Part shown: positions 11,657 to 27,288 of the stretch, piece after piece
How the letters are laid out: each line of letters opens with the position of its first letter
How positions within the stretch are numbered: the first letter of the stretch is position 1
Origin: Candidatus Latescibacterota bacterium
Lineage (GTDB): Bacteria; Latescibacterota; UBA2968; UBA8231
Length of the DNA stretch: 64,000 bases
Assembly: GCA_965200315.1 (NCBI GenBank)
Contig: OZ241362.1
Location: 4,480,001 to 4,544,000, forward strand
Direction: 5' to 3'
Made by a program: the position numbers and the translations under genes
The notes under the pieces: model-generated
The model's database searches: none
What the model saw: only the letters and a program-made list of their open reading frames with translations
Told to the model about the DNA's origin: nothing

Positions 11657-12076
11657 ATGAAAAACTATTTTGATCAAGAACTAGTAGATACCATAGGAGT
11701 ATTTCTGTCTTTTTCGTGTGTGATCCACTGTGTGGCAATGCCGCTTTTAGTAACAATTCTGCCGTTACTAGGGCTCGGATTCCTCGCAAGTGAACGCACG
11801 GAATTAATCATTATTGGAGCCGTTGCGCTCGCATTAGGTAGCGTCGTTTGGGGGATTAGGCATCACAGAAGTTGGAGAGCATTTCTCATTCTCGTAGCGG
11901 CAGTAGCGTTTATCGCCACCGCCCACATTGCTACTGAAGGAATCTTTGAAGTAGCCCTCCATGCAGCAGGAGGCATCCTACTGGCAGTAGCGCATCTCCT
12001 AAATCGGCACCTATGTAAGATATGTCCTGCATGTGAATGCGAACATACGGGTGATTCTCACTCGCTGCGGCATTGA
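11657..12076 (+). CDS. MerC-domain membrane protein
   Basis: D.IG...S..CVIHC..MP motif, 4 TM helices, Cys/His-rich tail; lower GC than neighbours. Confidence 0.8.
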   Translation: MKNYFDQELVDTIGVFLSFSCVIHCVAMPLLVTILPLLGLGFLASERTELIIIGAVALALGSVVWGIRHHRSWRAFLILVAAVAFIATAHIATEGIFEVALHAAGGILLAVAHLLNRHLCKICPACECEHTGDSHSLRH

Positions 12077-12096
12077 CAGAGTATACGACCTTTACC

Positions 12097-12414
12097 TCAT
12101 CTGCCCGCGTCTAGTTCGCGAAAAAACGCGAACGTATAAATGCCGTGGTCGTGCCCGTCGGCCCATTCGATGCGAATGCCGTAGTGCCCGACGTAGCTAA
12201 TCCCCCGCACCTCGGCCGTAGCCGACACAGCCTCGGGCTGCAAGAGCGTCAACCCACCCTCGCTCGTGTCGCGCAATTCCCGGCAGTGGGCGCAGGGGCA
12301 CTCGCGCCGCAACCCCTCCAAACTGTAGCGGCTCTCGCGGCCATCGCTCCACGCGATGACCAACTCGCCGGCCCGGCCATCCACGGCAATGTCGCGTGGC
12401 TTCGCCTTGTTCAA
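12097..12414 (-). CDS. DUF971 / GBBH-like N-terminal domain protein
   Basis: WSDG...LRRECPCAHC...VGHYG...WADGHDHGIYTF; TTG start overlaps the rimO stop. Confidence 0.85.
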   Translation of the reverse strand: MNKAKPRDIAVDGRAGELVIAWSDGRESRYSLEGLRRECPCAHCRELRDTSEGGLTLLQPEAVSATAEVRGISYVGHYGIRIEWADGHDHGIYTFAFFRELDAGR

Positions 12415-13730
12415 CGCGGCTCTCCCACCACCTCGGCACTCAGCTCGTAGGGCGCGGCTGCGGTGATTTCCACTTCGACGAAAGAACCCACCGGCGGCGT
12501 ACCCTCGGTGATGACGACTTGGCCGTCGATTTCCGGGGCGTCGCGCTCCATCCGCCCATAGCACATCTCCCCCACGCACGCATCGACCAAGACCTGATGC
12601 CGCGTGCCGACGAGCTCGTCGTTTTTCTCCGTGCCCACGCGCTCCTGCAGTTGCGTCAGGCGGCTGTAGCGCTCCTGCTTGACCTCCTCGCTGACCGGAT
12701 CGCCGAGCGCATACGCGGAAGTCCCCTCTTCCGGCGAGTAGAGAAAGCCGGTCGCATAGTCGAAGCGCGTCTCGGCCACGAACTCCAGCAAGGCGGCAAA
12801 ATCGGCTTCGGTCTCGCCGGGGAAACCCACGATGAACGTCGAGCGCAGCCCAGCCCCCGGCAGCCGTTCCTGCAGACGCGCCAACAAATCGAGCGTCTTT
12901 TGGCGCGTCGTCGCTCGCTTCATGCGCTTGAGCACCGGGTCGGAGATGTGTTGCAGCGGCATGTCGATGTACAGGCACATTTTGTCGCACGTGGCGTAGA
13001 AGTCGATCAGTTCCTCGGTCCAGAACGCCGGATAGGTGTACAGCAAGCGCATCCACTCAATGCCCTCCACCTCGGCGAGCGCTTGTAGGAGGCGCACGAG
13101 CTGGGGGCGGCCGTAGAGGTCGGCCCCGTAGCGAACCGAATCCTGAGAGACCAAAACCAACTCCCGCACCCCCTCTGCGGCCAGCCGTGCGGCCTCGGCC
13201 ACGAGCTGTTCAATCGGCTCGCTCACGTGCCGCCCGCGAATGGCGGGGATGGCGCAAAAGGCGCATTGGTGATCGCAGCCGTCCGATATGCGCAGGTATG
13301 CCCAGTGCTTGGGCGTCAGCGAGGTCCGCGGCAAGCTGGCCAAGTACTGGGGCCGCTGGACGCCCAACACGTCGTCAACGTGGTGGACGATGTCGGCCTC
13401 GTCGGAGATCGTCAGCAGCTTGTCGGCCTCCACCAACTCCTGAGCTAGCTCCTCGTAGTAGCGAGTCGATAGACACCCGGTGACGATCACCCCTTCGCAC
13501 TGACCCTCTTGCTTGAGCCGATGCGCGTCCATAATCGCGGCGATGGATTCTTCTTTGGCCGGCTCGATAAAGCCGCACGTATTGACCACCACGACCTCGG
13601 CCTCCTCGGGCGCGTCCGTTAGCTGATAGGCATGGCCCTGCAAAAGCCCCAGCATCCGCTCGGAATCAACCGTGTTTTTCGGGCACCCTAAGCTGATTAG
13701 GTGAACTTTATGGGGCTGGTTTTTGCTCAA
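12411..13730 (-). CDS. rimO: Ribosomal protein S12 methylthiotransferase
   Basis: SLGCPKN.VDSE, NTCGFI, CDHQCAFC radical SAM motif, TRAM domain with DAPEIDG. Confidence 0.95.
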   Translation of the reverse strand: MSKNQPHKVHLISLGCPKNTVDSERMLGLLQGHAYQLTDAPEEAEVVVVNTCGFIEPAKEESIAAIMDAHRLKQEGQCEGVIVTGCLSTRYYEELAQELVEADKLLTISDEADIVHHVDDVLGVQRPQYLASLPRTSLTPKHWAYLRISDGCDHQCAFCAIPAIRGRHVSEPIEQLVAEAARLAAEGVRELVLVSQDSVRYGADLYGRPQLVRLLQALAEVEGIEWMRLLYTYPAFWTEELIDFYATCDKMCLYIDMPLQHISDPVLKRMKRATTRQKTLDLLARLQERLPGAGLRSTFIVGFPGETEADFAALLEFVAETRFDYATGFLYSPEEGTSAYALGDPVSEEVKQERYSRLTQLQERVGTEKNDELVGTRHQVLVDACVGEMCYGRMERDAPEIDGQVVITEGTPPVGSFVEVEITAAAPYELSAEVVGEPR

Positions 13731-13732
13731 AA

Positions 13733-13760
13733 TAGTGATTGGTGGTTAGTGGTTAATGGG
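13733..13760. repeat. Heptamer tandem repeat (TAGTGGT-like x4)
   Basis: TAGTGAT TGGTGGT TAGTGGT TAATGGG; the same unit recurs at 38681-38750. Confidence 0.55.
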
Positions 13761-14871
13761 TGGCCGGCCAACTCGCGCTGCACTGCTGAGCGTATTCAAT
13801 GGCCGCTCGTACCGTCTCCTCGGTTATTCCTGCGGCGATCTCCACTTCCCCAATCCGCCGCCCCAGCACGAACCGCAACCGCCCATCCACTCGCTTCTTG
13901 TCGGCCTTGGCACAGGCCAAAATTCGTTCCGCCTCCATATCGGCCAACCCTTTGGGCACCCCCAACCGCTCCAGCAACGCATCCTGCCGCTGCCTTTCCG
14001 CTTCGGGCCAAAACCCCTCGCGGCAGGCGATTTCGCCCGCGGCGATCAGGCCCAAAATCACCGCCTCCCCGTGCCGGTAGCGGCCGTAGTCCGTGGCGGC
14101 CTCAATCGCGTGCCCAATGGTGTGCCCGTAATTGAGGATGGCCCGCAAACCCTGCTCCTTTTCGTCGGCAGCCACCACCTCGGCCTTGATCTCGACATTG
14201 CGACCAATCAGCCAGTCCAAGGTCTCCGGTGCCAACGCCATATCCACGACTTCCTCCAAGTACTCCTCCAAAAAGGCGAAGAGCGCAGCGTCGCGGATCA
14301 GCCCGTGTTTGACCACCTCGGCCATGCCCGCGACCCGTTCCCGCCGCGGCAGCGAGTGCAGCGCATTGGTGTCGGCCAAGACCAAACGCGGCTGGTGAAA
14401 GGTGCCGATCAGGTTTTTGCCCAGCGCGTGATTGACCCCTGTCTTGCCGCCGATGCTCGAATCCACCTGCGCGACAATGGTCGTCGGCACCTGCACATAG
14501 GGCACACCGCGCAAATAGGTGGAGGCCACAAAGCCCGCCATGTCGCCGACTACGCCGCCGCCGAGGGCCACGACCCAAGCGCCGCGGTCGAACTCGGCCG
14601 CGATCATCTGCGCGAAAAGGCCCTCGGCCCCGCTCAAGTTCTTGGCCTCTTCCCCCCCGGCATAGACAATCTCCAACACCTCAAACCCAGCAGCGCGCAA
14701 GCTGGCGGCCGCAGGTTGCAGGTAGCGCGCCGCCACGACCTCGTCGGACACTAGCGCGACCTGCCGGCCCAAGGCCAAGTCGCGGCAGCGCGGCCCCAGT
14801 TCCCCTAAGATATCGTGGCCGACGAAAATAGGATATGCAGCCCCCGGGATGTCTAAGTCAATTCTTAGCAT
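13753..14871 (-). CDS. aroB: 3-dehydroquinate synthase
   Basis: GGGVVGD, QVPTT..QVDSSIGGKTG.N and LNYGHTIGHA motifs. Confidence 0.96.
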   Translation of the reverse strand: MLRIDLDIPGAAYPIFVGHDILGELGPRCRDLALGRQVALVSDEVVAARYLQPAAASLRAAGFEVLEIVYAGGEEAKNLSGAEGLFAQMIAAEFDRGAWVVALGGGVVGDMAGFVASTYLRGVPYVQVPTTIVAQVDSSIGGKTGVNHALGKNLIGTFHQPRLVLADTNALHSLPRRERVAGMAEVVKHGLIRDAALFAFLEEYLEEVVDMALAPETLDWLIGRNVEIKAEVVAADEKEQGLRAILNYGHTIGHAIEAATDYGRYRHGEAVILGLIAAGEIACREGFWPEAERQRQDALLERLGVPKGLADMEAERILACAKADKKRVDGRLRFVLGRRIGEVEIAAGITEETVRAAIEYAQQCSASWPATH

Positions 14872-15391
14872 AGCTCTCCAACAAGGCGAGGAGTTGCCCG
14901 GCTGTGTCTTCAGGCGTCTGCGCCTGCGTGGTGTACAGCTCGATGTGGGCTTGGTCGTAGTACGGAGTGCGCTCGCGGAGCAGGGACTCTATTTTGGCGC
15001 GTTGCGCCTGCGGAGCCAACCCGACGAGCAGGGGCCGGTGCGAGCGGCACCGGACGCGGGCAAAAATCGTATCCACGTCGGCCTTGAGGCACACTAAGAT
15101 GCCAGCACAACGCACGGCCGCGACGTTGTCGGCGCGAGTAACTGCCCCACCACCCAAGGCCACTACGGCATCCGGGCGCTGGCAGGTTTCGAGGACGCAG
15201 TCGCGCTCTAGCTGGCGGAAGTGCGCCTCGCCTTCGCCAGCAAAAATCTCCGCAATGGACTTGCTGGCGCGCTGTTCGATCATCCGGTCGGTATCCAAAA
15301 AGCAACGCCCTAGCTGCTGCGCCAGAATGCGCCCGACTCGGGTCTTGCCCACGCCCATAAAACCAGTCAAAAATATCGGCCCTTCCGTCAT
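14858..15391 (-). CDS. aroK: Shikimate kinase
   Basis: GFMGVGKT P-loop, GEAHFR.LE, GGG and RPLL motifs. Confidence 0.95.
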   Translation of the reverse strand: MTEGPIFLTGFMGVGKTRVGRILAQQLGRCFLDTDRMIEQRASKSIAEIFAGEGEAHFRQLERDCVLETCQRPDAVVALGGGAVTRADNVAAVRCAGILVCLKADVDTIFARVRCRSHRPLLVGLAPQAQRAKIESLLRERTPYYDQAHIELYTTQAQTPEDTAGQLLALLESYAKN

Positions 15392-15401
15392 GGCCCACGC
15401 C

Positions 15402-17117
15402 TCACATTCGCTCGAGAGTCTCGATGCCGAGCAGGTCGAGGCCTTGGCGCAGGATGCGCGCGGTCAGCAGCGCGAGTAGTAGCCGACTCGTGCGTACCGG
15501 CTCGTCTGCGCGGAGGACCGGGCACTGCTCGTAGAACTTCATAAAGGCGTCCGCCAGCTCGTAGAGATAGTTGCATAGTACATGCGGATAGCACTGGCGG
15601 GCCACGGCCGCGACGGGCTCGGGAAACTGCAACAGCTTGATGGCCAGCGCATGCTCGGCTCTTTCGCCAATGGCGATCGCCCCGCCGAGCGCACCTTCAT
15701 CCACGCCAGCGCGGCGGAACATGCTCTTGATGCGGGCATACGAGTAGAGCATGTACGGAGCGGTGTTGCCGTCGAGGGATAGCATCTTGTCCCAGTCGAA
15801 CACGTAGTCCGAGGTGCGGTTGAACGACAGCTCCATGTATTTGATGCTGCCAATGCCGATCACGCGGGCTATCTGCTGCCGCTCGGCCTCGTCCATGTCG
15901 GGATTCTTGTCGCTCACTTGGGCAAAGGCCCGCGCCACACCCTCCTCCAATACGTCCATCAGCTTGACCGCGCCGCCGGCCCGCGTCCTGAACGGCCGGT
16001 TATCCGCGCCTAAAATCGCGCCAAACGCGTGGTGCTCCAAAGCAGTCGGCACCGGCGCGTACCCAGCCGCCCGCGCCACCGCGAAGACCTGCTGTAAGTG
16101 GAACGACTGGCGCGCATCGACTATGTAGAGGATGCGGTCGGCAGCAAGCGCACCGGCCCGATAGCGCACGGCCGCGAGGTCACTCGTCGCATAGAGGTAG
16201 CCACCGTCCGACTTCTGCACGATCACCGGCGTGATCTGGCCGTCCTTGTTTTTGAATTCCTTCAAGAAGACGCACTGTGCGCCGTTGGATTCCACGAGCA
16301 AGCCTTGGGCCCGCAAATCTTCGATCACGCGGGGCAAGTCATCGTTGTACGCGCTCTCTCCCTGCACGTCTTCGGGCTTGAGGCCGACCCCTAGCGAGGC
16401 GTACACGCGCTGGCCGTGGGCGAGCGACTCGTCGATGAACTGCTGCCACATCCGCTGCACGTGCGGGTCGCCGCTTTGCAGCTTGACCACGTATTCCCGC
16501 GACAAATCGGCGAAGGCTTCATCTTGGTCAAAGCGTTGACGCGCCGATTGGTAGAATACTTCTAGATCGGCCAATTCCGTGGCCGGGTCCGCGATCTCGT
16601 CCAAGTGAGCGATGAGCATCCCAAACTGCGTTCCCCAGTCGCCCACGTGATTGTGGCGCACCACCTCGTGGCCCAAAAATTCGAGGACGCGGGCGATGGC
16701 ATCACCGATGACCGTGCTGCGCAGATGGCCGATGTGCATTTCCTTGGCCAAGTTGGGATGCGAGTAGTCAATTACGGCCTTTTGCGGCGCATCCTCGGGC
16801 ACACCAAGCCGCGGATCGGCCAGCGCGTTCCCCAACTGCGCGGCCAGCCACTCGCCCTTGAGCTGGATATTGATAAAGCCCGGGCCGGCGATATCTACAG
16901 ACGCGGCCATGTCCTCCAAGTCCAGTTCCTCCACGACTTGGGCGGCGAGTGCGCGGGGGTTGGTCTTCAGCTTCTTGGCCGCGGCCATCACGCCATTGGC
17001 TTGGTAGTCGCCGAACTCCGGGCGGGTGGCCGGGCCGACGAGGGCCGGGGAATCCACCGGCGCGCCCGCTCGGGCCAGTGCCGCGCTGATGCGCGTTTCT
17101 AATGATTCGGTTATCAT
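15402..17117 (-). CDS. argS: Arginine--tRNA ligase
   Basis: FGDYQAN, HIGH, GDWGTQFG, GNTAPY and C-terminal ERM. Confidence 0.97.
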   Translation of the reverse strand: MITESLETRISAALARAGAPVDSPALVGPATRPEFGDYQANGVMAAAKKLKTNPRALAAQVVEELDLEDMAASVDIAGPGFINIQLKGEWLAAQLGNALADPRLGVPEDAPQKAVIDYSHPNLAKEMHIGHLRSTVIGDAIARVLEFLGHEVVRHNHVGDWGTQFGMLIAHLDEIADPATELADLEVFYQSARQRFDQDEAFADLSREYVVKLQSGDPHVQRMWQQFIDESLAHGQRVYASLGVGLKPEDVQGESAYNDDLPRVIEDLRAQGLLVESNGAQCVFLKEFKNKDGQITPVIVQKSDGGYLYATSDLAAVRYRAGALAADRILYIVDARQSFHLQQVFAVARAAGYAPVPTALEHHAFGAILGADNRPFRTRAGGAVKLMDVLEEGVARAFAQVSDKNPDMDEAERQQIARVIGIGSIKYMELSFNRTSDYVFDWDKMLSLDGNTAPYMLYSYARIKSMFRRAGVDEGALGGAIAIGERAEHALAIKLLQFPEPVAAVARQCYPHVLCNYLYELADAFMKFYEQCPVLRADEPVRTSRLLLALLTARILRQGLDLLGIETLERM

Positions 17118-17235
17118 GTGCTATAACAGTTCTGAATGACTTGAACGATGCAATCTGCGGATCGTCTTGCGTAGGGGCCCCCTACTATTCTGAGTCCATT
17201 GGCGGATTATCTCGTGAATCCACTCACCCAACGGC

Positions 17236-18084
17236 CTAAGCGGGGAAATGCTCTAGTGCGGCCGCAGTCATCGCCTCGACCGGCGGCTCGACACCCGTCC
17301 ATATCTCAAACGAGCGCGCGCCCTGCCAAGCGAGCATACCCAAGCCGTTGATCGCCCGCGCACCAGCGGCTGCGGCCTGCCGCATGAGCATAGTCTCTAA
17401 CGGATTGTACACAATGTCGGCGACCAGCATGCGCTCGTGCAGGCACGACGGGTCCGCCAGCGGCGAAGCACCTGCGCGGGGGTGCATCCCCAGCGCCGTG
17501 GCGTTGATGAGCAAACCAGCCTCCCCCATCGGCCCGGTCTCTGTCAGCGAGCCGACCCGCACCTTGCCCTCGCTGTCGAGGTCGCCAGCGAGAGCGGCGG
17601 CCTTTTCCACCGTGCGGTTGAGTAGCAGCACTTCCTCCACCTCGTCCCGCGCCAGCAGCGCATAGAGCACGGCCCGCGCCGCACCGCCCGCGCCGAGGAG
17701 TGCGACCTTGGGCGGCAGCGGGTCCAAGCCACCATCGGCCTTGAGGCTTTGGACGATTCCGAAGGCGTCGGTATTGTACCCCACGAGCCGGCCATCGCGG
17801 TTGGCAATGGTATTGACCGCGCCAATGCTCTGGGCTTCGGCGGAAACCTCGTCGAGATGCGCCATGACCGCCTGCTTGTGAGGCACCGTTACATTCAACC
17901 CAACCATGCCGAAGGCACGCATTCCGGCGAGCGCTTGAGACAAGGCTGCGGGAGCAACGCGTAACGCCGCGTACACATAGTTGAGATTCAGTGCCTTGAG
18001 CGCGGCATTGTGCATAGCCGGCGATGCCGTGTGTGCGACCGGGTCGCCGATGACGCCGAGCACCCGCGTCGTCCCGGAAATCAC
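17236..18084 (-). CDS. aroE: Shikimate dehydrogenase
   Basis: SPAMHN, NVTVPHK, AVNT, NTD and GAGGAARA motifs. Confidence 0.95.
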   Translation of the reverse strand: MISGTTRVLGVIGDPVAHTASPAMHNAALKALNLNYVYAALRVAPAALSQALAGMRAFGMVGLNVTVPHKQAVMAHLDEVSAEAQSIGAVNTIANRDGRLVGYNTDAFGIVQSLKADGGLDPLPPKVALLGAGGAARAVLYALLARDEVEEVLLLNRTVEKAAALAGDLDSEGKVRVGSLTETGPMGEAGLLINATALGMHPRAGASPLADPSCLHERMLVADIVYNPLETMLMRQAAAAGARAINGLGMLAWQGARSFEIWTGVEPPVEAMTAAALEHFPA

Positions 18085-18221
18085 CCCAACAAATCCTCAA
18101 TGAAGCAGTTGGCAATCTCAAAGGATTCGCGCCACGATACTCCGTAGAGCAAGCGAATGGCGAGTAGGCCACCGCCTAACATCACGGCCGCGCACACAAA
18201 GAGCCGAAAAATTCCTCTCAT
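18081..18221 (-). CDS. Unannotated 46-aa small membrane protein
   Basis: MRGIFRLFVCAAVMLGGGLLAIRLLYGVSWRESFEIANCFIEDLLG*; GGAGGAGG RBS; stop overlaps the aroE start (GTGA). Confidence 0.7.
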   Translation of the reverse strand: MRGIFRLFVCAAVMLGGGLLAIRLLYGVSWRESFEIANCFIEDLLG

Positions 18222-18223
18222 AT

Positions 18224-19468
18224 TCAACCTCCTCCAATAGATTGGACGGTCTTAAAAAAATCGGGCCAGATGGGCGTCAAGCAATCGCTGCCTTCGATGG
18301 TCAACTCTCCTTCGGCCAACAGCCCAGCCACGGCAAAGGCCATAGTTAAACCGGGATCGCCCTTGCCGTCGAGCCGGCCGCCTTGGAGCGGGAAGCCGCC
18401 TTTGATGACGAGCCCCTCGGGGAACTGGCCGATTCGCGCATCGAGCGAGCGCAGCGCAGCGCACAAATGCTCTACGTGCGGCAGGTCTTCGATATCGCGG
18501 ATGACCGTTGTCCCCGTCGCTTGGGTTGTCAAGACCGCTAGCAATGCGATCTGATCGGCGACCTTGGCCGCCCGCGGCCCGGCCACGCGGGTGGCTTTTA
18601 ACGGGCTGGTGCGCACGTGCAAGTCGCACTCAAAGCGCGTCGCTTCCTCGCGCTTTTTCCCGAGGGCTACCGCAGCGATCGGCGCCCCAATCTGCCGCAA
18701 CAAGTCCAAGAAGGCCCGCTGCCGAGGGCGAATGGCCACGCGCTTGATGGTTAGCTGCGACTCCTTGCGGCATAGCGCAGCCCCTATGAGCGGATAAGCC
18801 AACGCGAGTTGCCCGGGCACCTCTACGTCAGTTGCCTTTAACGCCTGTCCCCCCTCCACCGACAGCAGTCTGCGCCGCTCGACAGCAACCCCACGCTCGC
18901 GCAACAAGCGTTCCATGCGGCTGCCGACTTTCAGCACAGTCGTCCCCTCGGCAAAGAGCGCGGCCACCATTGCGCCCAGCGCGAGGGCGTTGGTCGGTGG
19001 TGCCTCGGAGAGGACGAACCCTTTGGCCTGCTGACCACCGATTACAAAGGTGTCCGTGCGCTCCTGTGCCACGGCGAACCCAAGTTGGGCCAGCAGGTTG
19101 AGCAAGGGCCGACACCGCTCGGCGTCCGCCCCCAACTTCACCGGCGAGCGAAACGTTTGCCCGGCGAGCAAGGGAAGCAACAACAGCGCGGTGTCGCCCA
19201 ACCCCGCTAGGTCAAGTGGGGCCGCTGCCTCCCGAAACCCCCGCAGCCCAACGCCGCGTACCCTATATGTGCCTGTGCGCTCGGCAATGTCAACTCCCAA
19301 CTCGCGCAACAGCGCGACCACGCGGCCAGCAGCAACGGGCACGTGGTGGACAGTACTATCTCCTTCGCTCAGCGCGGCCAACACGAGCGTACGCTCGGCT
19401 GGCTCCCGCTCTCCGGGCACTGAGACTTGCCCGGCGATTTTCTTGGCTGGACTTACGATTGCTGCCAT
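18224..19468 (-). CDS. aroA: AroA/EPSP synthase-fold protein with degenerate active site
   Basis: Collinear with EPSPS (VPG...LAALSEG, VRGVGLRG, LLAGQ, MAFAVAGL, PDFF) and sits in the tyrA-aroE position; catalytic motifs are substituted. Confidence 0.75.
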   Translation of the reverse strand: MAAIVSPAKKIAGQVSVPGEREPAERTLVLAALSEGDSTVHHVPVAAGRVVALLRELGVDIAERTGTYRVRGVGLRGFREAAAPLDLAGLGDTALLLLPLLAGQTFRSPVKLGADAERCRPLLNLLAQLGFAVAQERTDTFVIGGQQAKGFVLSEAPPTNALALGAMVAALFAEGTTVLKVGSRMERLLRERGVAVERRRLLSVEGGQALKATDVEVPGQLALAYPLIGAALCRKESQLTIKRVAIRPRQRAFLDLLRQIGAPIAAVALGKKREEATRFECDLHVRTSPLKATRVAGPRAAKVADQIALLAVLTTQATGTTVIRDIEDLPHVEHLCAALRSLDARIGQFPEGLVIKGGFPLQGGRLDGKGDPGLTMAFAVAGLLAEGELTIEGSDCLTPIWPDFFKTVQSIGGG

Positions 19469-19471
19469 CGA

Positions 19472-20572
19472 CTAGGGCCTCCGCACCACATACCCGAGCC
19501 GAGCCAAAATTCCCAGCGCATTTTCCGCGCTCTCCGCGCTGTCAAACCCCAACCGCAGCGTCCCTCCCTCGCCCTCGCGCACCTTCATCACCTCAATATC
19601 GTTGATGTTCACCCCTTGCGTCCCCAGTGCCTGCCCAATCTCGGCGATGACGCCTGGTCGGTCCTCGGCTAGCACCAAGATCTCGTGCAGTGCGTGAATA
19701 AACCCTTTTGAATCCCGCGGGATGGACCCCCGAATTTCATTGGCAAAATCGAAATCCGCCTTTAGCTCCTCGGCCTCCAGCCGCTCCCTCACTTCCGCGA
19801 GCGCGGTGCTGTAGCGGTCGATCATCGCACGAATCTCGTCGGCATTGGTCGCGCAGATATCCTCCCACACCGGCGCGAACGGGCTGGAAGCAATCCGCGT
19901 CAAATCGCGGAAACCGCCAGCAGCGAGCGGCAGGAAGTGGTCCCGCTCGGCATTCAGCCGCCCGACCATACTCACCAGCGAGGTCGCCAGCATCTGCGGC
20001 AGGTGGCTGATAGCGGCGACCGCCCGGTCGTGTGCCCCAGCGTCCAGTTCCATAACCCGTGCCCCAACCTGACTCAAGAGCGCAGTCAATGCTTGGTAGC
20101 ACTCGGCCGGCACCTTCTGGTCGGGGACCAAAATGTAGATCGCATTCTGGAAGAGGAACGGATCGGCCGCGGCCACGCCCGCCTTTTCAGAGCCAGCCAT
20201 TGGGTGGCCGCCGACAAAGTACATCTCGTCGCTGAAATGAGCTTGGGCCGCCGCGACAATGCGCCGCTTGGTGCTCCCCACATCGGTAACCAGCGTCCCC
20301 GGCTCGGCGAGCCGCCCCACCTCTGCAATCAGCGTGAGAATCCGCTTGATCGGGGTGCAGATAAAGACCAAGTCGGCGCCTTTGAGTGCGCACTCCAGCT
20401 CGTCGTAGCCCCAACCCTCGTCGATCACGCCCAACTCCAGCGCGCGGGCGATGGTTGCGGGGCGGCTTACGCCCACAAGCCGCCCGCCAAAGCCGGTGCG
20501 CTGGAGTGCCAAGCCTATTGAGCCGCCAATCAGGCCCACGCCGACGATGACGGCCCGCCGGAAGAAGGCTAG
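19472..20572 (-). CDS. tyrA: Prephenate dehydrogenase with C-terminal ACT domain (start unresolved)
   Basis: RAVIVGVGLIGGS Rossmann motif, TDVGSTK, GGHPMAGSE, HD...SHLP, GFRDLTRIA; ACT domain with DRPGVIA. Confidence 0.9.
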   Translation of the reverse strand, partial: LAFFRRAVIVGVGLIGGSIGLALQRTGFGGRLVGVSRPATIARALELGVIDEGWGYDELECALKGADLVFICTPIKRILTLIAEVGRLAEPGTLVTDVGSTKRRIVAAAQAHFSDEMYFVGGHPMAGSEKAGVAAADPFLFQNAIYILVPDQKVPAECYQALTALLSQVGARVMELDAGAHDRAVAAISHLPQMLATSLVSMVGRLNAERDHFLPLAAGGFRDLTRIASSPFAPVWEDICATNADEIRAMIDRYSTALAEVRERLEAEELKADFDFANEIRGSIPRDSKGFIHALHEILVLAEDRPGVIAEIGQALGTQGVNINDIEVMKVREGEGGTLRLGFDSAESAENALGILARLGYVVRRP

Positions 20573-20832
20573 GTCTCCTCGCGTTCAAAGTTGGTGGTGA
20601 GTTCGATGAGCAGCCGGTAGAGCATCTCTAGGGCCTCGTCCTTCATCGGCCCTTGGTTGTAGGCCTTGATCTTGGCGAGCACGATGCGCTCGCGTTCGGC
20701 ATCGCGTATTGGTTTTCCCGCGGCCTTTTTGATTCGCCCGATCTCTTGCGCGCACTGTATGCGCTCGTTGAGCAGATCGATCAGTTGCTGGTCGATGCCA
20801 TCTATGCGTTCGCGCCAGTCACTCAGGTCCAT
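20569..20832 (-). CDS. Chorismate mutase (AroQ, type II)
   Basis: L..WRERID.ID..L..LLNER...IG..K...D..RE motif. Confidence 0.92.
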   Translation of the reverse strand: MDLSDWRERIDGIDQQLIDLLNERIQCAQEIGRIKKAAGKPIRDAERERIVLAKIKAYNQGPMKDEALEMLYRLLIELTTNFEREET

Positions 20833-20841
20833 AGTTGCCCC

Positions 20842-21825
20842 TTACCGATGTCCCATGGCTCGGCGGACCGCATCCATTGTCGCGTCGACGATCGGGCGCA
20901 GCTCCTCGACGCTCTCGGCGAGCACCCCGTCAATGTACGCGGGATCCGCGGTCAACTTCCGATAGCGAGCTTGAATCGGTTCGATCTCGGCGAGGACCAC
21001 TGCGGCCAGTTCCTTTTTTAAGTCGCCGTACCCTTTGCCGGCAAAATGCGCCTCAATCTCGTCGTTCTCTAGGCCGGTCAACGCCTGATAGATGGTCAGG
21101 AGGTTGTACAGCCCGGGGCGCTGCGGGTCGAGGACAATGTCGCGCTGCGAATCCGTCACCGCCCGCATGATCGTCTTGCGGACAGTGGCTGGGTCATCGA
21201 GCAAACCGATGCTGTGGTACTGGCCCTCGGCGGATTTAGACATTTTCGCGGTCGGATCGTCGAGCCCCATGATCCGCGCCCCAACTTGCGGAATGACTGG
21301 CTCGGGCACGGTGAACACCTCGCCGAACTGGCGATTGAACCGCTCGGCGATGTCGCGGGTCAGTTCCACGTGCTGTTTTTGGTCGTCGCCGACCGGCACC
21401 TCGTGCGCCTGATAGAGCAAAATATCGGCCGCCATCAACGCTGGATAGACGAACAGTCCGGTGCCGACGCGCTCGCGCCGCGCCCCCACCCGATCCTTGA
21501 ACTGGGTCATCCGCTCTAGCCAGCCCATCGGCGTGATGCAGGTCAACAGCCAAGCCAACTCAGTGTGCTCCGGGATGTGCGACTGCACGAAGAGGCGACA
21601 CTTTTGCGGATCGAGGCCGCAGGCGATGTACAGGGCCACGGCCTCGCGCGTACCGCAGCGCAAAGCCTGCGGGTCGTAGGGCCCGGTGATCGCGTGCTGA
21701 TCGACCACGCAGAAGATGTTGTCGCGGTCCGCTAGGTTGGCCAGCCAGTTGCGGACGGCCCCGATGTAGTTGCCGATGTGGATGTGGCCCGAAGGCTGAA
21801 TGCCCGAAAACACTCGTTTTTTCAC
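20842..21825 (-). CDS. trpS: Tryptophan--tRNA ligase
   Basis: SGIQPSG, HIGN, YPALMAADIL, VPVGDDQ and KMSKS motifs. Confidence 0.97.
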   Translation of the reverse strand: MKKRVFSGIQPSGHIHIGNYIGAVRNWLANLADRDNIFCVVDQHAITGPYDPQALRCGTREAVALYIACGLDPQKCRLFVQSHIPEHTELAWLLTCITPMGWLERMTQFKDRVGARRERVGTGLFVYPALMAADILLYQAHEVPVGDDQKQHVELTRDIAERFNRQFGEVFTVPEPVIPQVGARIMGLDDPTAKMSKSAEGQYHSIGLLDDPATVRKTIMRAVTDSQRDIVLDPQRPGLYNLLTIYQALTGLENDEIEAHFAGKGYGDLKKELAAVVLAEIEPIQARYRKLTADPAYIDGVLAESVEELRPIVDATMDAVRRAMGHR

Positions 21826-22601
21826 GTGCCCAATAGCTCCCTCACTTTAGCCCCGATATCGGCTTCGCGCATCAGGGATTCGCCGACCAAGATCGCATCG
21901 ACGCCGGCGCCGGCGAGCCGCTCGACATCGCGGCGATGTTCAATTCCGCTCTCGCTGACCACGACAGCCCCCTCCGGCATCTGCTCCAGAAGCGCGAAAG
22001 TCGTCTCCAAGGTCGTCTCGAAGGTCCGCAGATCGCGGTTGTTGACGCCGATGAGCCGGGCACCGGCCGCTTTGGCCCGCGTCAGTTCCGCTCCATCGTG
22101 GACTTCAACGAGCGCGTCTAATTCCAACTCGCTGGCGAGGCCAAGATAGTCGTCGAGCTGGCTGGAGTCCATTAGCGCCACGATCAGCAAAACGGCGTCA
22201 GCACCGATGACGCGGGCTTCGTAGAGCTGGTACTCGTCGATAGTGAAGTCCTTGCGCAACACTGGCAAGCCCGCAACCTCTTTGGCCATCTGCACATACG
22301 CATCGCATCCCTGAAAATACGCCTCGTCCGTCAATACCGAAAGACAGCGCGCACCATGAGCGGCATACGCATCGGCGATCCACTCGGGGTCGAAGTCGGC
22401 ACGGATGACACCTTTGGACGGCGAGGCTTTTTTTACCTCGGCGATCAACGCAATCTCGTCCGCAGTTAGCGCCCCTATAAAATCGGCCGGCGAGGACGTA
22501 TCGCGCGCCTGTGACCGCACATCGGCCAAACTGCGCTGACGCTGGCGGTCGGCGACGAACTCGCGCTTGTACGCGGCTATTTGGCTTAGGATATCCGCCA
22601 T
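21822..22601 (-). CDS. trpC: Indole-3-glycerol phosphate synthase
   Basis: IAEVKKASPSKG, SVLTD, LRKDF, GVNNRDL and SESG motifs. Confidence 0.96.
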   Translation of the reverse strand: MADILSQIAAYKREFVADRQRQRSLADVRSQARDTSSPADFIGALTADEIALIAEVKKASPSKGVIRADFDPEWIADAYAAHGARCLSVLTDEAYFQGCDAYVQMAKEVAGLPVLRKDFTIDEYQLYEARVIGADAVLLIVALMDSSQLDDYLGLASELELDALVEVHDGAELTRAKAAGARLIGVNNRDLRTFETTLETTFALLEQMPEGAVVVSESGIEHRRDVERLAGAGVDAILVGESLMREADIGAKVRELLGT

Positions 22602-22603
22602 CG

Positions 22604-23614
22604 TCAGGAGTTGCTTACCTCGACCAGCCGCTCTAGGGCTTGGCGCGCCTGGCCCGAGTCTATGGATTCTTGGGCTACTTCGAGACCAGCGGTTATATCC
22701 TCGGCCAGCCCGCCAACGACTATGGCCGCGGCCGCGTTGAGCAACACTACATCGCGCTGTGGCCCCTCCTCGCCGTCGAGTACCTCGCGCAGGATGCGCG
22801 CATTGTAGGCCGCGTCGCCGCCTTTGAGGGCCCAGGCTGAGACTGTCTGCAAACCAAAATCCTCTGGGTGGAGCTGGCGCGTATTGATTTGTCCGTCTCT
22901 AAGCTCGCTGACCTGCGTCGGCCCGGTCAGGGTGATCTCGTCTAGCCCGTCCGCGCCGTGTACCACCAAGGCCCGCGCCGATCCCAACTCGCGCAGCACC
23001 CCGGCGAGCACCTCGGTCAACGCGCCATCGTACACCCCGAGCAATTGCCTTTGGGCTCCGGCCGGATTGGTCAGCGGCCCCAAGGCGTTAAAAACCGTGC
23101 GAGTGGCCAACTCCCGGCGCGGGCCAATGGCGTGTTTCATCGCCCCGTGCAAGGCCACCGCAAAGAGGAAGCCGATGCCGACTTCGTCGATGCACTCGCC
23201 GACCTTTTCCGGCGTGGCTGCGACGTTGACGCCGAGCTCGCCGAGCACGTCCGCCGAGCCGCACTGGCTCGATATGGATCGGTTGCCGTGCTTGGCCACC
23301 GCTAGGCCCGCGCCGCAGGCGACAAAGGCTACCGCAGTAGAAATGTTGAAGGTGCCCGAGGCATCGCCGCCGGTGCCACAGGTATCGATGAGATCGGGGC
23401 GCACCGTCGCTATGGGCGTGGCTTTCTCGCGCATGACTTCGGCGCAGCCGGCGATCTCGTCGATGGTCTCGCCCTTGATCCGCAGGGCGACGAGAAACGC
23501 GCCGATCTGCGCGTCGGTGGCTTGGCCGCTCATGATCTGCTCCATGGCCGCCCGCGCCGCGGCGCGACTCAAATCCGCTCCGGCGATCAGGTCTTTTATA
23601 GCTTCTTGTATCAT
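22604..23614 (-). CDS. trpD: Anthranilate phosphoribosyltransferase
   Basis: DTCGTGGD...FNIST, KHGNRS and GLDE motifs. Confidence 0.96.
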   Translation of the reverse strand: MIQEAIKDLIAGADLSRAAARAAMEQIMSGQATDAQIGAFLVALRIKGETIDEIAGCAEVMREKATPIATVRPDLIDTCGTGGDASGTFNISTAVAFVACGAGLAVAKHGNRSISSQCGSADVLGELGVNVAATPEKVGECIDEVGIGFLFAVALHGAMKHAIGPRRELATRTVFNALGPLTNPAGAQRQLLGVYDGALTEVLAGVLRELGSARALVVHGADGLDEITLTGPTQVSELRDGQINTRQLHPEDFGLQTVSAWALKGGDAAYNARILREVLDGEEGPQRDVVLLNAAAAIVVGGLAEDITAGLEVAQESIDSGQARQALERLVEVSNS

Positions 23615-23624
23615 GCTCGCTCCC

Positions 23625-24188
23625 CTATATGCGAAGAAAATTGGCCAGCAGTTGTTTGCCTTCTATCGTCAGAATCGATTCCGGGTGGAACTGCACCCCT
23701 TCGAGGGGCCAGCGCCGGTGCCGAAGCCCCATAATGGTCCCATCGTCGCTTTCCGCCGATACTTCGAGGCATTCGGGTAAACTCGCTCGCTCGACAGCCA
23801 GCGAGTGATAGCGAGTGGCCGCGAAGGGGTTTTGCAGGCCGGCGAACAGGGTGCGGCCGTCGTGTTGCACGGCCGTCGCACGGCCGTGGACAATCTCGCT
23901 GGCCCGCAGGACGCGCCCGCCGCAAACTTGGGCGATGACTTGGTGCCCTAAGCACACGCCTAAAATGGGAACCACACCGGCCAACTGCTCGACGAGTGCG
24001 CACGAAATTCCAGCTTGCGCTGGGCCACCGGGACCAGGCGATATAACGACGCGCTCGGGCGCGAGTGCCACCGCTGCGGCGACCGTCAATTCGTCGTTGT
24101 GCAAGACCTTGGTCGCCGCCCCTAATTCCTCTAAATAATGCACCAAATTGTAGGTAAAGGAGTCGTAGTTATCAAGTATCAGCAGCAT
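23625..24188 (-). CDS. trpG: Anthranilate/aminodeoxychorismate synthase glutaminase subunit (TrpG/PabA)
   Basis: DNYDSFTYNL, SPGPG, GVCLGHQ, RYHSL and QFHPES motifs. Confidence 0.9.
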   Translation of the reverse strand: MLLILDNYDSFTYNLVHYLEELGAATKVLHNDELTVAAAVALAPERVVISPGPGGPAQAGISCALVEQLAGVVPILGVCLGHQVIAQVCGGRVLRASEIVHGRATAVQHDGRTLFAGLQNPFAATRYHSLAVERASLPECLEVSAESDDGTIMGLRHRRWPLEGVQFHPESILTIEGKQLLANFLRI

Positions 24189-24192
24189 GGCT

Positions 24193-26367
24193 TCAGCGCG
24201 CTAGTTTCCCTATTACTTGGGCAATCAGCCGCAAGCCTAAATCGTCCTTGAGCGTCAAGATCGACTCCGGGTGAAACTGCACGGCCGCCACTGGTAATTC
24301 GCGGTGTTCCACAGCCATGATGACCTCGTCGGTCTGCGCTAACACCCGCAAGCACTCGGGCAACTTCTCCGGCACGGCATAGAGCGAGTGATAGCGCCCG
24401 GCGACAAACTCCGTGGGAAACCCAGCGAAAATCCCTTCCGGCGTGCAGTGGATCGTCGATTTCTTGCCGTGCATCGGGTAGGAAAGCACCCCTAACTCGC
24501 CACCGAGCGCCTCGACGATGCCCTGCAAGCCGAGGCACACGCCGAAAACCGGCAGCGTACGTCGGACGCACTCGTCGACCAACTCCGGTACGCCGAATTC
24601 CTCGGGCATACCGGGCCCCGGCGAGATAAAGACCAGATCGGGATCAAACTCGGCGAAGACGCGCTGGGGGTCGCGCAGGCCCCGCACACCACTGCCGTCG
24701 CGCGCTCTCGCAGCGCGCACGGTCACCACTTCGGCTCCCGTCTGCCGCACGTAATCGCCGAGCATGTGGACGAAAGAGTCGCGGTTATCGACAAAGAGCA
24801 CCCGCTTGCCCTGCCCGGAAGCCGCGATTTGCACACTCTTCTTCGCGGCATCGTTCGCGCCGATCACCGCGTTGATAAAGGTCTCGGCCTTGGCCCGCGT
24901 TTCGCGCTCCTCGGCGTCCGGGTCCGAGTCGCAGAGGAGGGTCGCCCCGGCCCGCACTTGGGCCATGCCGTCCTCCAAGTGTACGGTGCGAATGGTGATT
25001 CCGGTGTTTATCTCGCCGCTAAAGAGCAGCATGCCAATGCAGCCGCCGTACCAGCGCCGCGCCGAGTTTTCCAGTTCCTCAATTTTCTGCATGGCCGCTG
25101 GCTTGGGTGCGCCGGTAAGTGTTACCGCCCATAGATGCGAAAGCAGGGCGTCGAATCCATCGCAGTCGTCCTTCAGCTCGCCGACGACTTGGTCTACGGT
25201 GTGAAAGACCTTGGAGTACTTTTCGATCATCCGCCGCCCGACCACTCGCACCGATCCTTCCTTGCAAACCCGCGCTTTGTCGTTGCGGTCGACGTCCGTA
25301 CACATGTTCAACTCGGCTTCGTCCTTTTTTGAGTTGAGCAAGTCGCGGATTTGCTCGGCGTCCTCCATCACGGTTTTGCCGCGGCCAATGGTCCCGGCAA
25401 TCGGACTGGTCTCGACGAATGACCCGTTGACCCGCACGAACATCTCGGGCGAAGCACCGATCAGATACTCGTCGCCGAGGTTGATGAAAAACTCATAGGG
25501 GCTGGGACTAGTGCGGCGAATATTCTCAAAGAGGGTGTGCGGGCTGCCGACATAGCCCGCGCTGAGCACTTGGCTCGGGGTCACTTCAAAGAAGTCGCCG
25601 CGCTCGGTCCCGGCGATGACCTCGCGCACTTTGTCGGCGTATTCCCCAGGGGCGTGGTCGCACGTGATCTCGGTCGCTGCGCCGCGCACATAAGGCACGG
25701 CGTCCGTGCAGCGCGCCAAGCCCTCGGTTGAAGCCCCGTTAGCGGCAAATTCATAGTGGTAGCGCCGCGCCTGCTCCTTGCGGTGATCGACGACGACCAA
25801 TTCGTCTGGCAAAAAGAGGTGCAGATCGGGCCGGTCTTCGCGGCGCGGGTGGCACAGTTGGAGCGGCTCAAACTGGAGTACCAAGTCGTAGCCCAGTGCC
25901 CCGTAAAACCCCAAGTGGTTTTCGCCCTCAGCTCGCATCTGCGCCATTAGGGCGCGCAGGACGCTGAAGATCGTCGGCTGCTTGGAACGCTCCTCTTCGG
26001 GGAAGTACTCGGGCATGGGTGCCACCGCGCCTTTGAGCTGCCCCTCGGTTCGCTTCAACTCAATCACATGTTCGTGCTGGGCAAGGCTCCCGCGAAAGAT
26101 ATCCAGCAGCATCTCGCCGCGGGCGTTGAGTGCCCGCAAGGCAAAGGCGCGCTGACGCGCCACCAGTTCCAGCGGCGGATCGACGAAGCCGATGTCCCAG
26201 CGACTGTACCGCCCTGGATACTCGTAGCCGCTGGCAAAGACCGCACCTCGGTGAGTATTGAGCCGTTCGAGCAGAGACGTTAGCGGCCTTTCTATGGGTA
26301 ATTCCTCGGTTTGGCGCTTGACTTCGACGCCGCCAGCCGTGCGAAAAGTTTCCGTGTGAATGGTCAT
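24193..26367 (-). CDS. trpE: Fused anthranilate synthase TrpE(G)
   Basis: SGYEYPGRYSRWD, GASPEMFVRV, DVDRND, TGAPK; C-terminal GATase with GVCLG and QFHPES; GGAG RBS before ATG at 26367. Confidence 0.93.
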   Translation of the reverse strand: MTIHTETFRTAGGVEVKRQTEELPIERPLTSLLERLNTHRGAVFASGYEYPGRYSRWDIGFVDPPLELVARQRAFALRALNARGEMLLDIFRGSLAQHEHVIELKRTEGQLKGAVAPMPEYFPEEERSKQPTIFSVLRALMAQMRAEGENHLGFYGALGYDLVLQFEPLQLCHPRREDRPDLHLFLPDELVVVDHRKEQARRYHYEFAANGASTEGLARCTDAVPYVRGAATEITCDHAPGEYADKVREVIAGTERGDFFEVTPSQVLSAGYVGSPHTLFENIRRTSPSPYEFFINLGDEYLIGASPEMFVRVNGSFVETSPIAGTIGRGKTVMEDAEQIRDLLNSKKDEAELNMCTDVDRNDKARVCKEGSVRVVGRRMIEKYSKVFHTVDQVVGELKDDCDGFDALLSHLWAVTLTGAPKPAAMQKIEELENSARRWYGGCIGMLLFSGEINTGITIRTVHLEDGMAQVRAGATLLCDSDPDAEERETRAKAETFINAVIGANDAAKKSVQIAASGQGKRVLFVDNRDSFVHMLGDYVRQTGAEVVTVRAARARDGSGVRGLRDPQRVFAEFDPDLVFISPGPGMPEEFGVPELVDECVRRTLPVFGVCLGLQGIVEALGGELGVLSYPMHGKKSTIHCTPEGIFAGFPTEFVAGRYHSLYAVPEKLPECLRVLAQTDEVIMAVEHRELPVAAVQFHPESILTLKDDLGLRLIAQVIGKLAR

Positions 26368-26383
26368 GGCGTTCTCCAAGAAC

Positions 26384-26416
26384 AAAAAAACGCGGACACC
26401 CGAGGGCATCCGCGTT
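26384..26416 (-). terminator. trp attenuator intrinsic terminator
   Basis: Minus strand AACGCGGATGCCC-TCG-GGTGTCCGCGTT with a terminal T7 run, just upstream of trpE. Confidence 0.85.
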
Positions 26417-26439
26417 GGATTGAAAAATCTCGTCGCAGT

Positions 26440-26520
26440 CTAGCGGATGGACGCACCTCTCTCCCGGCTCGGGGGATACCAAGCGCGCCACCAGCGACGA
26501 ATGTGAGGCGAAAATTTCAT
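26440..26520 (-). CDS. trpL: trp operon leader peptide (26 aa)
   Basis: MKFSPHIRRWWRAWYPPSRERGASIR* with three Trp codons, two of them tandem, ahead of the terminator. Confidence 0.88.
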   Translation of the reverse strand: MKFSPHIRRWWRAWYPPSRERGASIR

Positions 26521-26529
26521 AACGGGCAA

Positions 26530-26558
26530 AAAGTAAAGGGGCCGCTAGTACCTGTCAA
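26530..26558 (-). promoter_or_regulatory. sigma70 promoter of the trp leader
   Basis: TTGACA-N17-TACTTT. Confidence 0.75.
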
Positions 26559-26579
26559 GCTGTTGGCGAATCAATGCCG

Positions 26580-26951
26580 CTACGGCAGAGGGCATATAAC
26601 CACCCGGCCTCCGTCTACGACTTGAACGATCAACTCACAGCCGTAAAGCAGAGACATGCCAACAAGAGGAGCACAGTCTGCCTCGTCCACAGCAATCCGT
26701 CTCGGCCTGCTATTCCATGTGACAGTGGCCTCGTAGATATCGAAAAGGCTGTCTCGGCCATCGGCTAGCATAGCCCGCCCCCGCCGGCACCAGACAAGAC
26801 CCAACTCCTGAATGAGGGATGCCGGAAGCGTCAGGAAACCGTTGAAACCTGTATCGACAACCGCATCGATTGAGCACCTCCGGTTTTGGGGTCCCCTCAC
26901 ATTCAGAGAGATGATGGCTTCGCGGTATGCAGTAACATGGCCGGTTATCAT
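26580..26951 (-). CDS. Clan AA (retropepsin-like) aspartic protease
   Basis: AVVDTGFNG catalytic motif, LADG flap, LVGMSLL; ATGA overlap with the upstream gene. Confidence 0.85.
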   Translation of the reverse strand: MITGHVTAYREAIISLNVRGPQNRRCSIDAVVDTGFNGFLTLPASLIQELGLVWCRRGRAMLADGRDSLFDIYEATVTWNSRPRRIAVDEADCAPLVGMSLLYGCELIVQVVDGGRVVICPLP

Positions 26952-27223: not shown

Positions 27224-27288
27224 ATCGTTTCGCCTTGCGATTACAGGGGCCGCTCTTCTGAAGTTACTGACGGATGGTACGTCCGCCC

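Follow-up and report, generated by a model that had tools for sequence, protein, structure and literature searches.

A probable non-catalytic descendant of class-II EPSP synthase retained between tyrA and aroE in Latescibacterota

The gene at positions 18224-19468 (-) of a 64,000-nucleotide (nt) stretch of a Candidatus Latescibacterota genome (assembly GCA_965200315.1, contig OZ241362.1, positions 4,480,001 to 4,544,000 of the forward strand; the whole stretch is here called the window) lies between tyrA and aroE and encodes a protein with the fold of 5-enolpyruvylshikimate-3-phosphate (EPSP) synthase, the product of aroA. This protein, here called psAroA, is probably a displaced class-II EPSP synthase that has been kept as a non-catalytic protein, with its function residing in the C-terminal lobe and with protein binding as the mode of action that we infer.

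The open reading frame (ORF) runs without interruption from ATG to TGA (414 amino acids (aa) plus the stop codon), and its product, judged from the sequence, belongs by its fold to the EPSP synthase superfamily, yet it fails the tests for a functional AroA. The PF00275 (EPSP_synthase) profile matches the protein end to end (residues 7-406 on positions 3-415 of 417; 124.4 bits, E 6e-36), the score on the aroA equivalog model TIGR01356 of NCBIfam is 140.8 bits, below the cut-off of 287.25, and the score on the MurA model TIGR01072 is 51.5 bits against a cut-off of 392.7, so that the protein is not classed as MurA either. The best solved relatives found by sequence with HMMER are class-II AroA proteins (3rmt, E 4e-48; 3roi, E 4e-40), and the AroA of E. 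coli is reached only at E 4e-5. AlphaFold2, supplied with an alignment of 22 rows, confidently predicts an EPSP synthase fold with two lobes in the open state, with a predicted local distance difference test score (pLDDT) of 93.0 and a predicted template modelling (TM) score of 0.90. The top Foldseek matches to the model are EPSP synthase chains throughout; the best overall fit (TM 0.80) is 3roi_B, a Coxiella AroA entry with no ligand in its title, and liganded entries from Coxiella, CP4 and E. coli are listed at TM 0.57-0.61.

The full-length family match and the fold are what would be expected if psAroA were still an EPSP synthase, albeit one with unusual residues. We scored 18 substrate-binding and catalytic positions against the canonical AroA of the same genome, using residue numbers that we take to be those of the E. 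coli enzyme and that come in part from the initial annotation, and called the motifs from HMMER alignments to the class-II proteins 3rmt and 3roi together with MAFFT alignments. The window protein keeps four of the 18 positions, namely R27, G96, D313 and D384. The GDKSxxHR motif has become GEREPAER, with R, E and R at K22, S23 and R27; GNSGTTxR has become GLGDTALL, with G, G, D and L at N94, G96, T97 and R100 in the MAFFT alignment and with the loop lost in both alignments; SAQxK has become TNA-L, with T, N and A at S169, S/A170 and Q171; and DE(I/F)P has become DQIA, in which D313 is present (VADQIA). The KETNR loop is replaced by a five-residue gap (EDL-----PHVE), the columns of K340, E341 and R344 reading gap, gap and H, and DHR has become DPG (within GDPG), in which D384 is retained and H385 and R386 are replaced by P and G. 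The state of R124 depends on the alignment: MAFFT places an E there, and the HMMER pairwise alignment places R-P opposite the RP of R124. The initial annotation had described an intact 414-aa ORF between tyrA and aroE in which these motifs read as degenerate by eye and R27 and D313 probably remained, and all of this holds: both alignment methods agree with each of the motif readings, neither restores the catalytic residues, and the two remaining residues are both present. An EPSP synthase with unusual residues would have to work without positions 22/23, 94-100, 169-171, 340-344 (where the loop itself is deleted) and 385/386, despite an equivalog score less than half of the cut-off, beside a canonical AroA in the same genome, and with relatives from which a whole lobe is absent; we give this explanation next to no credence.

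The canonical enzyme is found elsewhere on the same contig. The genome (G000) consists of one 5.36-Mb contig with three PF00275 genes, which encode a class-I-type AroA, MurA and psAroA, and since all three lie on one contig, contamination of the bin does not explain the presence of two AroA proteins. The class-I-type AroA, to which we refer as the live AroA, has 427 aa, is encoded about 3 Mb from psAroA, and scores 396.6 bits on PF00275 and 420.5 bits on TIGR01356. Among solved proteins it comes closest to the class-I EPSP synthases from E. coli, from Vibrio and from plants, at about 330 bits compared with 130 bits for class II, and it keeps all 18 positions if a Q is accepted in the K340 column. 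The MurA of the genome scores 451.3 bits on TIGR01072. The live AroA and psAroA are about 25% identical, represent two different classes of AroA and are not encoded next to each other. The replacement enzyme that was initially envisaged for this step of the shikimate pathway, should psAroA be the only AroA of the organism, is thus not needed. A match to TIGR01356 over the cut-off is present in 113 of 121 sampled genomes of the window's taxonomic class.

It should be noted that the live AroA is itself divergent in one genome, G126 of genus g6 (L098:594-1880 (-), L099:456-1877 (-)). There it is a class-I-type protein of 428 aa with insertions, which lies below the TIGR01356 cut-off and keeps most key residues, with L in the N94 column and Q in the K340 column. 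The same genome contains a second MurA-like gene with D at what we take to be the position of the fosfomycin-target cysteine.

Loss of the active site is a property of a whole clade. A HMMER scan of 1.84 billion representative proteins returned 5835 proteins at E <= 0.001, and 140 proteins of at least 380 aa among the matches listed were aligned together with two further sequences. The 22 nearest representatives keep one to six of the 18 positions, at which their residues vary from protein to protein, and of the other 119 representatives, 114 keep 16-18 positions and the remaining five are partly degenerate. Close relatives carry the name "hypothetical protein" at NCBI, in metagenome-assembled genomes (MAGs) labelled Latescibacterota, Handelsmanbacteria or Gemmatimonadetes, and the name 3-phosphoshikimate 1-carboxyvinyltransferase at JGI. 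A scan of species genomes yielded 24 loci, all in MAGs of the group, two of them cut inside the gene; in all 22 loci that span the gene, tyrA, psAroA and aroE stand within the order trpE/G-trpG-trpD-trpC-trpS-tyrA-psAroA-aroE-argS-aroK-aroB. The gene is retained in families in which TyrA is only about 55% identical.

Five class-II AroA-like representatives of 445-464 aa (P0149, P0150, P0166, P0190 and P0257) are partly degenerate and keep 4-12 of the 18 positions. They share a DLxxELDRRMKR-type insert with the in-cluster AroA that is active in families f11 and f13 (L057, L062), which suggests that activity has been lost in related lineages too, possibly to an intermediate degree.

The distribution of the dead copies was read from 101 genomes sampled across the phylum, with a profile of the clade as the query. 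The window's class comprises families f1-f4, and genomes of these families usually contain two AroA-family matches, which we read as a dead copy and a class-I-type enzyme. From the matches listed, the dead copy was read in 70 of the 73 genomes of this class (72 of the phylum sample and the window's own); of the three exceptions, G044 has no tyrA match either, the contig of G026 ends inside tyrA, and in G074 the gene has been deleted. Families f5, f6, f9, f11, f12 and f13 have a single AroA-family match each. Nine such single copies from sister classes (L054-L062) all carry canonical class-II motifs (PGDKSISHR, a loop of the G/ENSGT..R type, SAQ/SAT-VKS, IDE(I/L)P, KE(T/A)DR and DHR), and one in-cluster AroA from a sister class reaches 404.3 bits on TIGR01356. 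At these nine loci tyrA lies upstream in three, the small ORF described below is present in four and aroE lies downstream in five; the three f13 loci, which are on short contigs, have neither of the two flanking genes.

In family f7, aroE directly follows tyrA. Family f10, which belongs to another class, contains a 445-aa AroA-like gene 2 nt after tyrA (L093:150-1487 (-), genome G133); this operon copy is more degenerate, reading VPGDRILTLT and having no GNSGT..R, DE.P or DHR, and the separate AroA elsewhere in the same genome has the sequence GNSGTTLYM, in which Y takes the place of R100. Thus, where a class-I-type AroA was found, the operon copy is dead or missing, and where none was found, the operon copy is canonical.

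The phylogeny agrees with the position of the gene. A careful maximum-likelihood tree was calculated for 47 hand-picked rows only (18 dead forms, 6 in-cluster active enzymes, 17 other class-II proteins, 5 class-I-type proteins from the phylum, and the MurA of the genome as outgroup). The 18 dead forms are one clade (bootstrap 100; Shimodaira-Hasegawa-like approximate likelihood ratio test (SH-aLRT) 99), this clade is united with the in-cluster active enzymes (100/97), and the live AroA falls outside the class-II clade, where it is joined with its counterparts from families f7 and f8 (100/100). psAroA is the positional and phylogenetic orthologue of the active class-II in-cluster AroA.

One explanation for a dead gene in this position is that it is a functionless relic, displaced by the class-I-type AroA and decaying slowly toward deletion. 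It would account for the facts that psAroA evolves faster than its neighbours, that the class contains at least three independent truncations and one complete loss, and that the former catalytic positions drift freely. Selection was quantified as the ratio of non-synonymous to synonymous substitution rates (dN/dS) by the Nei-Gojobori method in our own script, with bootstrapping over codons; genome pairs are not independent in these estimates. In 20 loci of the window's genus, dN/dS was 0.244 (0.204-0.294) for psAroA, 0.088 for tyrA and 0.117 for aroE. In 20 loci of genus g2, in which the gene encodes a single lobe, dN/dS was 0.165 (0.124-0.208) for psAroA, 0.129 for tyrA, 0.151 for aroE and 0.112 for the small ORF, the value for the single-lobe form being indistinguishable from those of the neighbouring enzymes. 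Within the window's genus both lobes are at about 0.24 (0.243 for residues 20-222), and the lowest values along the protein (0.10-0.16) fall at residues 286-315 and 331-390. The reading frame is open in 20 of 20 loci of the window's genus and in 20 of 20 loci of genus g2, and thus chance does not explain the intact ORF. psAroA is under purifying selection and has been retained for a long time across the class. Decay without function is hard to reconcile with ratios so far under 1, with the open frames, with retention between families whose TyrA proteins have diverged so far, and with a single-lobe form that is as constrained as tyrA and aroE; in addition, we know of no bacterial pseudogenes that remain open over such distances. 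A relic is therefore unlikely, albeit the least unlikely of the four alternatives to a retained non-catalytic protein that are weighed here. A canonical copy combined with neutral evolution of this one, which had been named at the outset as an outcome that would speak against a retained pseudoenzyme, applies in its first half only: the canonical copy exists, and the evolution is not neutral (dN/dS 0.24, bootstrap 0.20-0.29).

A mirror-tree analysis of rates in 14 loci and nine genes gave the highest partial correlation for psAroA and TyrA (r 0.80), equalled by TyrA and AroE. It was dropped as evidence, since most pairs correlate highly and the background control is too weak.

Relatives in which the gene has become shorter indicate which part of the protein is being maintained. 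The window protein can be divided into residues 1-19 (19412-19468 (-)), which form N-terminal strands of the retained lobe (model strands E2-5 and E12-16); residues 20-222 (18803-19411 (-)), which form a contiguous lobe with the degenerate GERE, GLGDTALL and PTNAL motifs; and residues 223-414 (18227-18802 (-)), which form the C-terminal part of the retained lobe and the conserved core of the family. In genus g2 of family f2 and in family f3, the gene product is no longer than about 216-227 aa, the N-terminal strands being joined directly to the C-terminal half, and the equivalents of residues 20-222 have been removed so that exactly one lobe is left. On a further tree, the g2 forms nest beside a full-length f2 form (SH-aLRT 99) and the f3 pair branches apart; therefore, the same lobe has been deleted at least twice. 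According to its predicted structure (pLDDT 94.4), the g2 form folds independently, and the model superposes on one lobe of solved EPSP synthases with TM 0.81 and a root-mean-square deviation of 2.3-2.7 A. A large protein collection contains about 16 near-full-length clusters of each single-lobe type, the named sources of which are Latescibacteria or Gemmatimonadota MAGs; other matches listed in that search looked like fragments of full-length genes on short contigs.

The distribution of conserved residues points in the same direction. Among 22 members of the clade, the conserved columns in residues 20-222 are exclusively G, L, V and P, without a single polar column, and all conserved polar columns lie in residues 223-414 (R251, D255, R258, K291, T293, R294, R299, T315, Q316, R324, D325, D330, R340 and E348), the only part that is present in every truncated form. 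Conservation of R251, D255, R258, T293 and R294 is stronger among the dead forms than among the active enzymes. Two deletions of the other lobe have left the constraint undiminished, and the function is therefore placed in the lobe of residues 1-19 and 223-414.

These results also bear on the idea that the cleft between the lobes has been remodelled to catalyse a different reaction or to bind a small molecule, such that the protein might, for instance, sense shikimate 3-phosphate, phosphoenolpyruvate or an aromatic compound. The window's family does keep both lobes, with dN/dS of 0.24 on each, the model is a confident open two-lobe fold, and the equivalents of R27 and D313 remain in the window protein. 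Against this, the 18 cleft positions vary among the members of the clade without a common new set of residues, R27 is kept in 28% and D313 in 36% of 25 full-length dead forms, residues 20-222 contain no conserved polar column, and two lineages have dispensed with that lobe and maintain what is left of the protein under strong constraint. A new activity in the cleft is thus quite improbable, more so than a relic. To judge from the alignments, catalysis and binding in the old cleft can be regarded as excluded as the common function of the clade, because the residues of the cleft drift and the lobe of residues 20-222, in which no polar position is conserved, is dispensable. The ligand sensor proposed in the initial annotation is unlikely in so far as it would use the old cleft, one lobe of which has been deleted twice in relatives; the evidence is best read in line with the wider proposal, that of an intact pseudoenzyme of the AroA fold retained for a non-catalytic role, in view of the non-neutral dN/dS of 0.24 and the retention throughout the class.

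The genes around psAroA are tightly packed. The TAG stop codon of tyrA (19472-20539 (-)) ends 3 nt before the ATG of psAroA, and a GGAGG motif inside the end of tyrA (19478-19482 (-)), 9 nt before this ATG, would act as a ribosome-binding site. A small ORF of 46 codons (18081-18221 (-)) starts 2 nt past the psAroA stop codon, and its own stop codon overlaps the GTG start codon of aroE (17236-18084 (-)) in the sequence GTGA. It is conceivable that the psAroA frame is kept open only for translational coupling from tyrA to the small ORF and aroE, the protein itself being irrelevant, and the wide variation in the size of the ORF between lineages would fit such a role, as would the short gaps and the overlap. 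However, coupling constrains the frame and not the amino acids, yet non-synonymous change is suppressed four- to sixfold and the same structural core is conserved between families; moreover, the gap between tyrA and psAroA reaches about 200 nt in other loci, and genome G074 manages without the gene. We regard coupling as the sole role of the gene as very improbable, somewhat more so than a new activity in the cleft.

The 46-aa protein is of membrane type: it has an N-terminal hydrophobic helix with a GG(G) motif and, after it, an acidic tail (SWRESLEIADQFVEDLL type) that is conserved and, by the distribution of charges, may face the periplasm. Its alignment comprises 27 rows. The ORF is present in 24 of 24 related loci and in two of two other in-class loci, always between the AroA-like gene and aroE, also beside the active in-cluster AroA and in G074, where psAroA is missing (window 18081-18221 (-); L030-L053, L024, L025, L054, L055, L059, L062, L067-L070, L074). 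The database contains 260 clusters of this protein, none of them named and none with a Pfam or NCBIfam match.

The retention of psAroA as a non-catalytic protein probably came about as follows. A class-II EPSP synthase was ancestrally encoded between tyrA and aroE in Latescibacterota, and psAroA is its descendant in place. In the window's class, a second, class-I-type AroA encoded elsewhere would perform the reaction, and the operon copy has lost its substrate-binding and catalytic residues, so that it would no longer make EPSP. The protein has nevertheless been retained in folded form under purifying selection, and would thus do something non-catalytic: the lobe of residues 1-19 and 223-414 would bind another protein as a structural or regulatory subunit, the partner most likely being a product of the packed, translationally coupled unit of tyrA, psAroA, the small ORF and aroE. 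Nucleic-acid binding is not hinted at, as the dead forms show no basic shift (median isoelectric point 5.4). A complex prediction for a TyrA dimer with the single-lobe form of G025, run without controls, gave 0.00 against a mark of 0.32, which is no answer and is uninformative either way.

A more far-reaching version holds that the lobe of residues 1-19 and 223-414 of EPSP synthase has an ancient job that is independent of catalysis, namely as an assembly or regulatory subunit for the neighbouring aromatic-pathway proteins, possibly together with the phylum-wide 46-aa protein. When the class-I enzyme took over catalysis, this job would have been what was left, and the protein would have been stripped twice to one lobe. 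We consider such an ancient second job possible, albeit with clearly less confidence than the retention of a non-catalytic protein as such. If it were true, the active in-cluster AroA of the sister classes would share the non-catalytic function, and perhaps also the class-II AroA that is encoded beside TyrA or fused with it in other bacteria.

Several observations weigh against a conserved non-catalytic function of psAroA, or against parts of the account given above. The partner and the binding mode are what we infer, and no tool result names a partner or an activity. The gene is less constrained than its surroundings: in the window's genus its dN/dS is two to three times that of its neighbours, it is 38-60% identical in related loci in which TyrA is 62-81% identical (for example, at L039, TyrA 66%, AroE 63% and psAroA 41%), and root-to-tip paths in the dead clade are about four times longer. 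The dead forms have no newly conserved residue that would mark a new site, and most of their conserved residues are inherited from the active ancestor, R251, D255, R258, T293 and R294 being already predominant in the in-cluster relatives that are active. At least one lineage does without the gene, as G074 (95% complete) has tyrA, the small ORF and aroE with nothing between tyrA and the small ORF in a stretch without N, and G058 keeps only a C-terminal piece of about 160 aa.

Two further points concern the enzyme that is thought to have taken over. The activity of the live AroA is presumed from its residues, with a Q aligned to K340. In addition, eight of the 121 genomes of the class have no TIGR01356 match over the cut-off. 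Five of these eight were examined: one contains a divergent class-I-type AroA bearing the key residues, two contain fragments of a further copy at contig ends, and in two (90% and 95% complete) no further AroA copy was found. Of the remaining three, two gave partial matches that do not reach the cut-off, and the third attains it only in combination with an adjacent match in the same frame.

The wider cluster contains, on the same strand, trpE/G, trpG, trpD, trpC, trpS, tyrA, psAroA, the small ORF, aroE, argS, aroK and aroB. The trpE/G fusion (24193-26409 (-), 738 aa) combines chorismate-binding and glutamine amidotransferase domains and is immediately followed by a separate trpG-like amidotransferase gene (23625-24188 (-), 187 aa); both are conserved in most related loci. 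TyrA is a prephenate dehydrogenase with a C-terminal ACT domain (PF02153, PF20463, PF01842), and AroE is a shikimate dehydrogenase (PF08501, PF18317, PF01488). Two aminoacyl-tRNA synthetase genes are situated inside the aromatic cluster, trpS (20842-21825 (-)) between trpC and tyrA and argS (15402-17117 (-)) between aroE and aroK, and this order is conserved in related loci. The identity of ArgS to that of the window is 31-36% in many loci and 62-81% in others, which suggests that two argS types occur in the slot between aroE and aroK. In family f6 (L054:5438-6518 (-), genome G129), two unrelated genes of 141 aa and 205 aa, which by eye look like a nucleotidyltransferase and a methyltransferase, stand between tyrA and the active in-cluster AroA, so that the tight junction of tyrA and AroA is not universal in the phylum.

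An Rfam scan of positions 12000-28000 of the window gave zero matches, and a scan of 17000-21200 for promoters and terminators gave nothing that exceeded the expectation from shuffled sequence. Nearly identical copies of the region 17236-20539 occur in metagenome runs associated with sponges and in three libraries of one study that are labelled metatranscriptomic, and the source organism appears to be a sponge symbiont. These three RNA-labelled libraries probably contain DNA: their contigs are 30-60 kb long, the study is possibly the source of the window's DNA, and carry-over of DNA is possible, so that they do not support transcription.

Among known proteins, psAroA is closest to the class-II AroA of Bacillus halodurans (3rmt) and Coxiella burnetii (3roi) in fold, in length and in its best sequence and structure matches, and it shares its operon slot with the in-cluster AroA of the sister classes (L054-L062), its sister clade on the tree. 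It differs from class-II AroA in the loss of 14 of the 18 positions and of the KE..R loop, in its score below the cut-off, and in having single-lobed relatives. Its best NCBIfam model is NF011381 (PRK14806), a bifunctional prephenate dehydrogenase/EPSP synthase, on the AroA half of which it scores 184.2 bits. Here too tyrA precedes aroA, the two being separate genes with a gap of 3 nt; unlike the bifunctional protein, psAroA is unfused, scores far under the cut-off of 902, and has an AroA part that appears to be dead. Fused forms of the TyrA-AroA type, with 739 and 721 aa, are among the database relatives (P0167, P0187). One lobe of EPSP synthase as a separate polypeptide has precedents in PDB entries 1p88 and 3ti2, to judge by their names and matched ranges; these isolated fragments, however, comprise the contiguous lobe (residues 19-241 of the live AroA), the very one that is deleted in the natural single-lobe forms.

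Dead paralogues can serve a live enzyme, as HisZ does for ATP phosphoribosyltransferase. The AdoMetDC prozyme of Trypanosoma brucei is likewise reported to be a dead paralogue serving its live enzyme (PMC5201418). psAroA resembles both in being a dead homologue of a biosynthetic enzyme that is kept under selection together with an active homologue, and it differs from both in that its live counterpart is of another class and encoded at a distance, and in that it can shrink to one lobe. The literature searched, which lay outside subscription journals and supplements, yielded no account of EPSP synthases that are dead or reduced to a single lobe.

EPSP synthase is among the best-studied enzymes and is a target of glyphosate and of antimicrobials. 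To our knowledge, it has been treated as a monomeric enzyme with a single function. The evolutionary pattern described here is clean and unusual for this enzyme. A dead copy that is present throughout a clade, is under selection and has twice been cut down to one lobe would amount to a natural dissection experiment, which also supplies minimal constructs, and this dissection would imply that one lobe of EPSP synthase does something besides catalysis. The naming of such proteins as EPSP synthases, as at JGI, would mislead the reconstruction of pathways and the prediction of glyphosate sensitivity from the EPSP synthase class. Last but not least, the case documents the displacement of one class of an enzyme by another, with the loser preserved in place.

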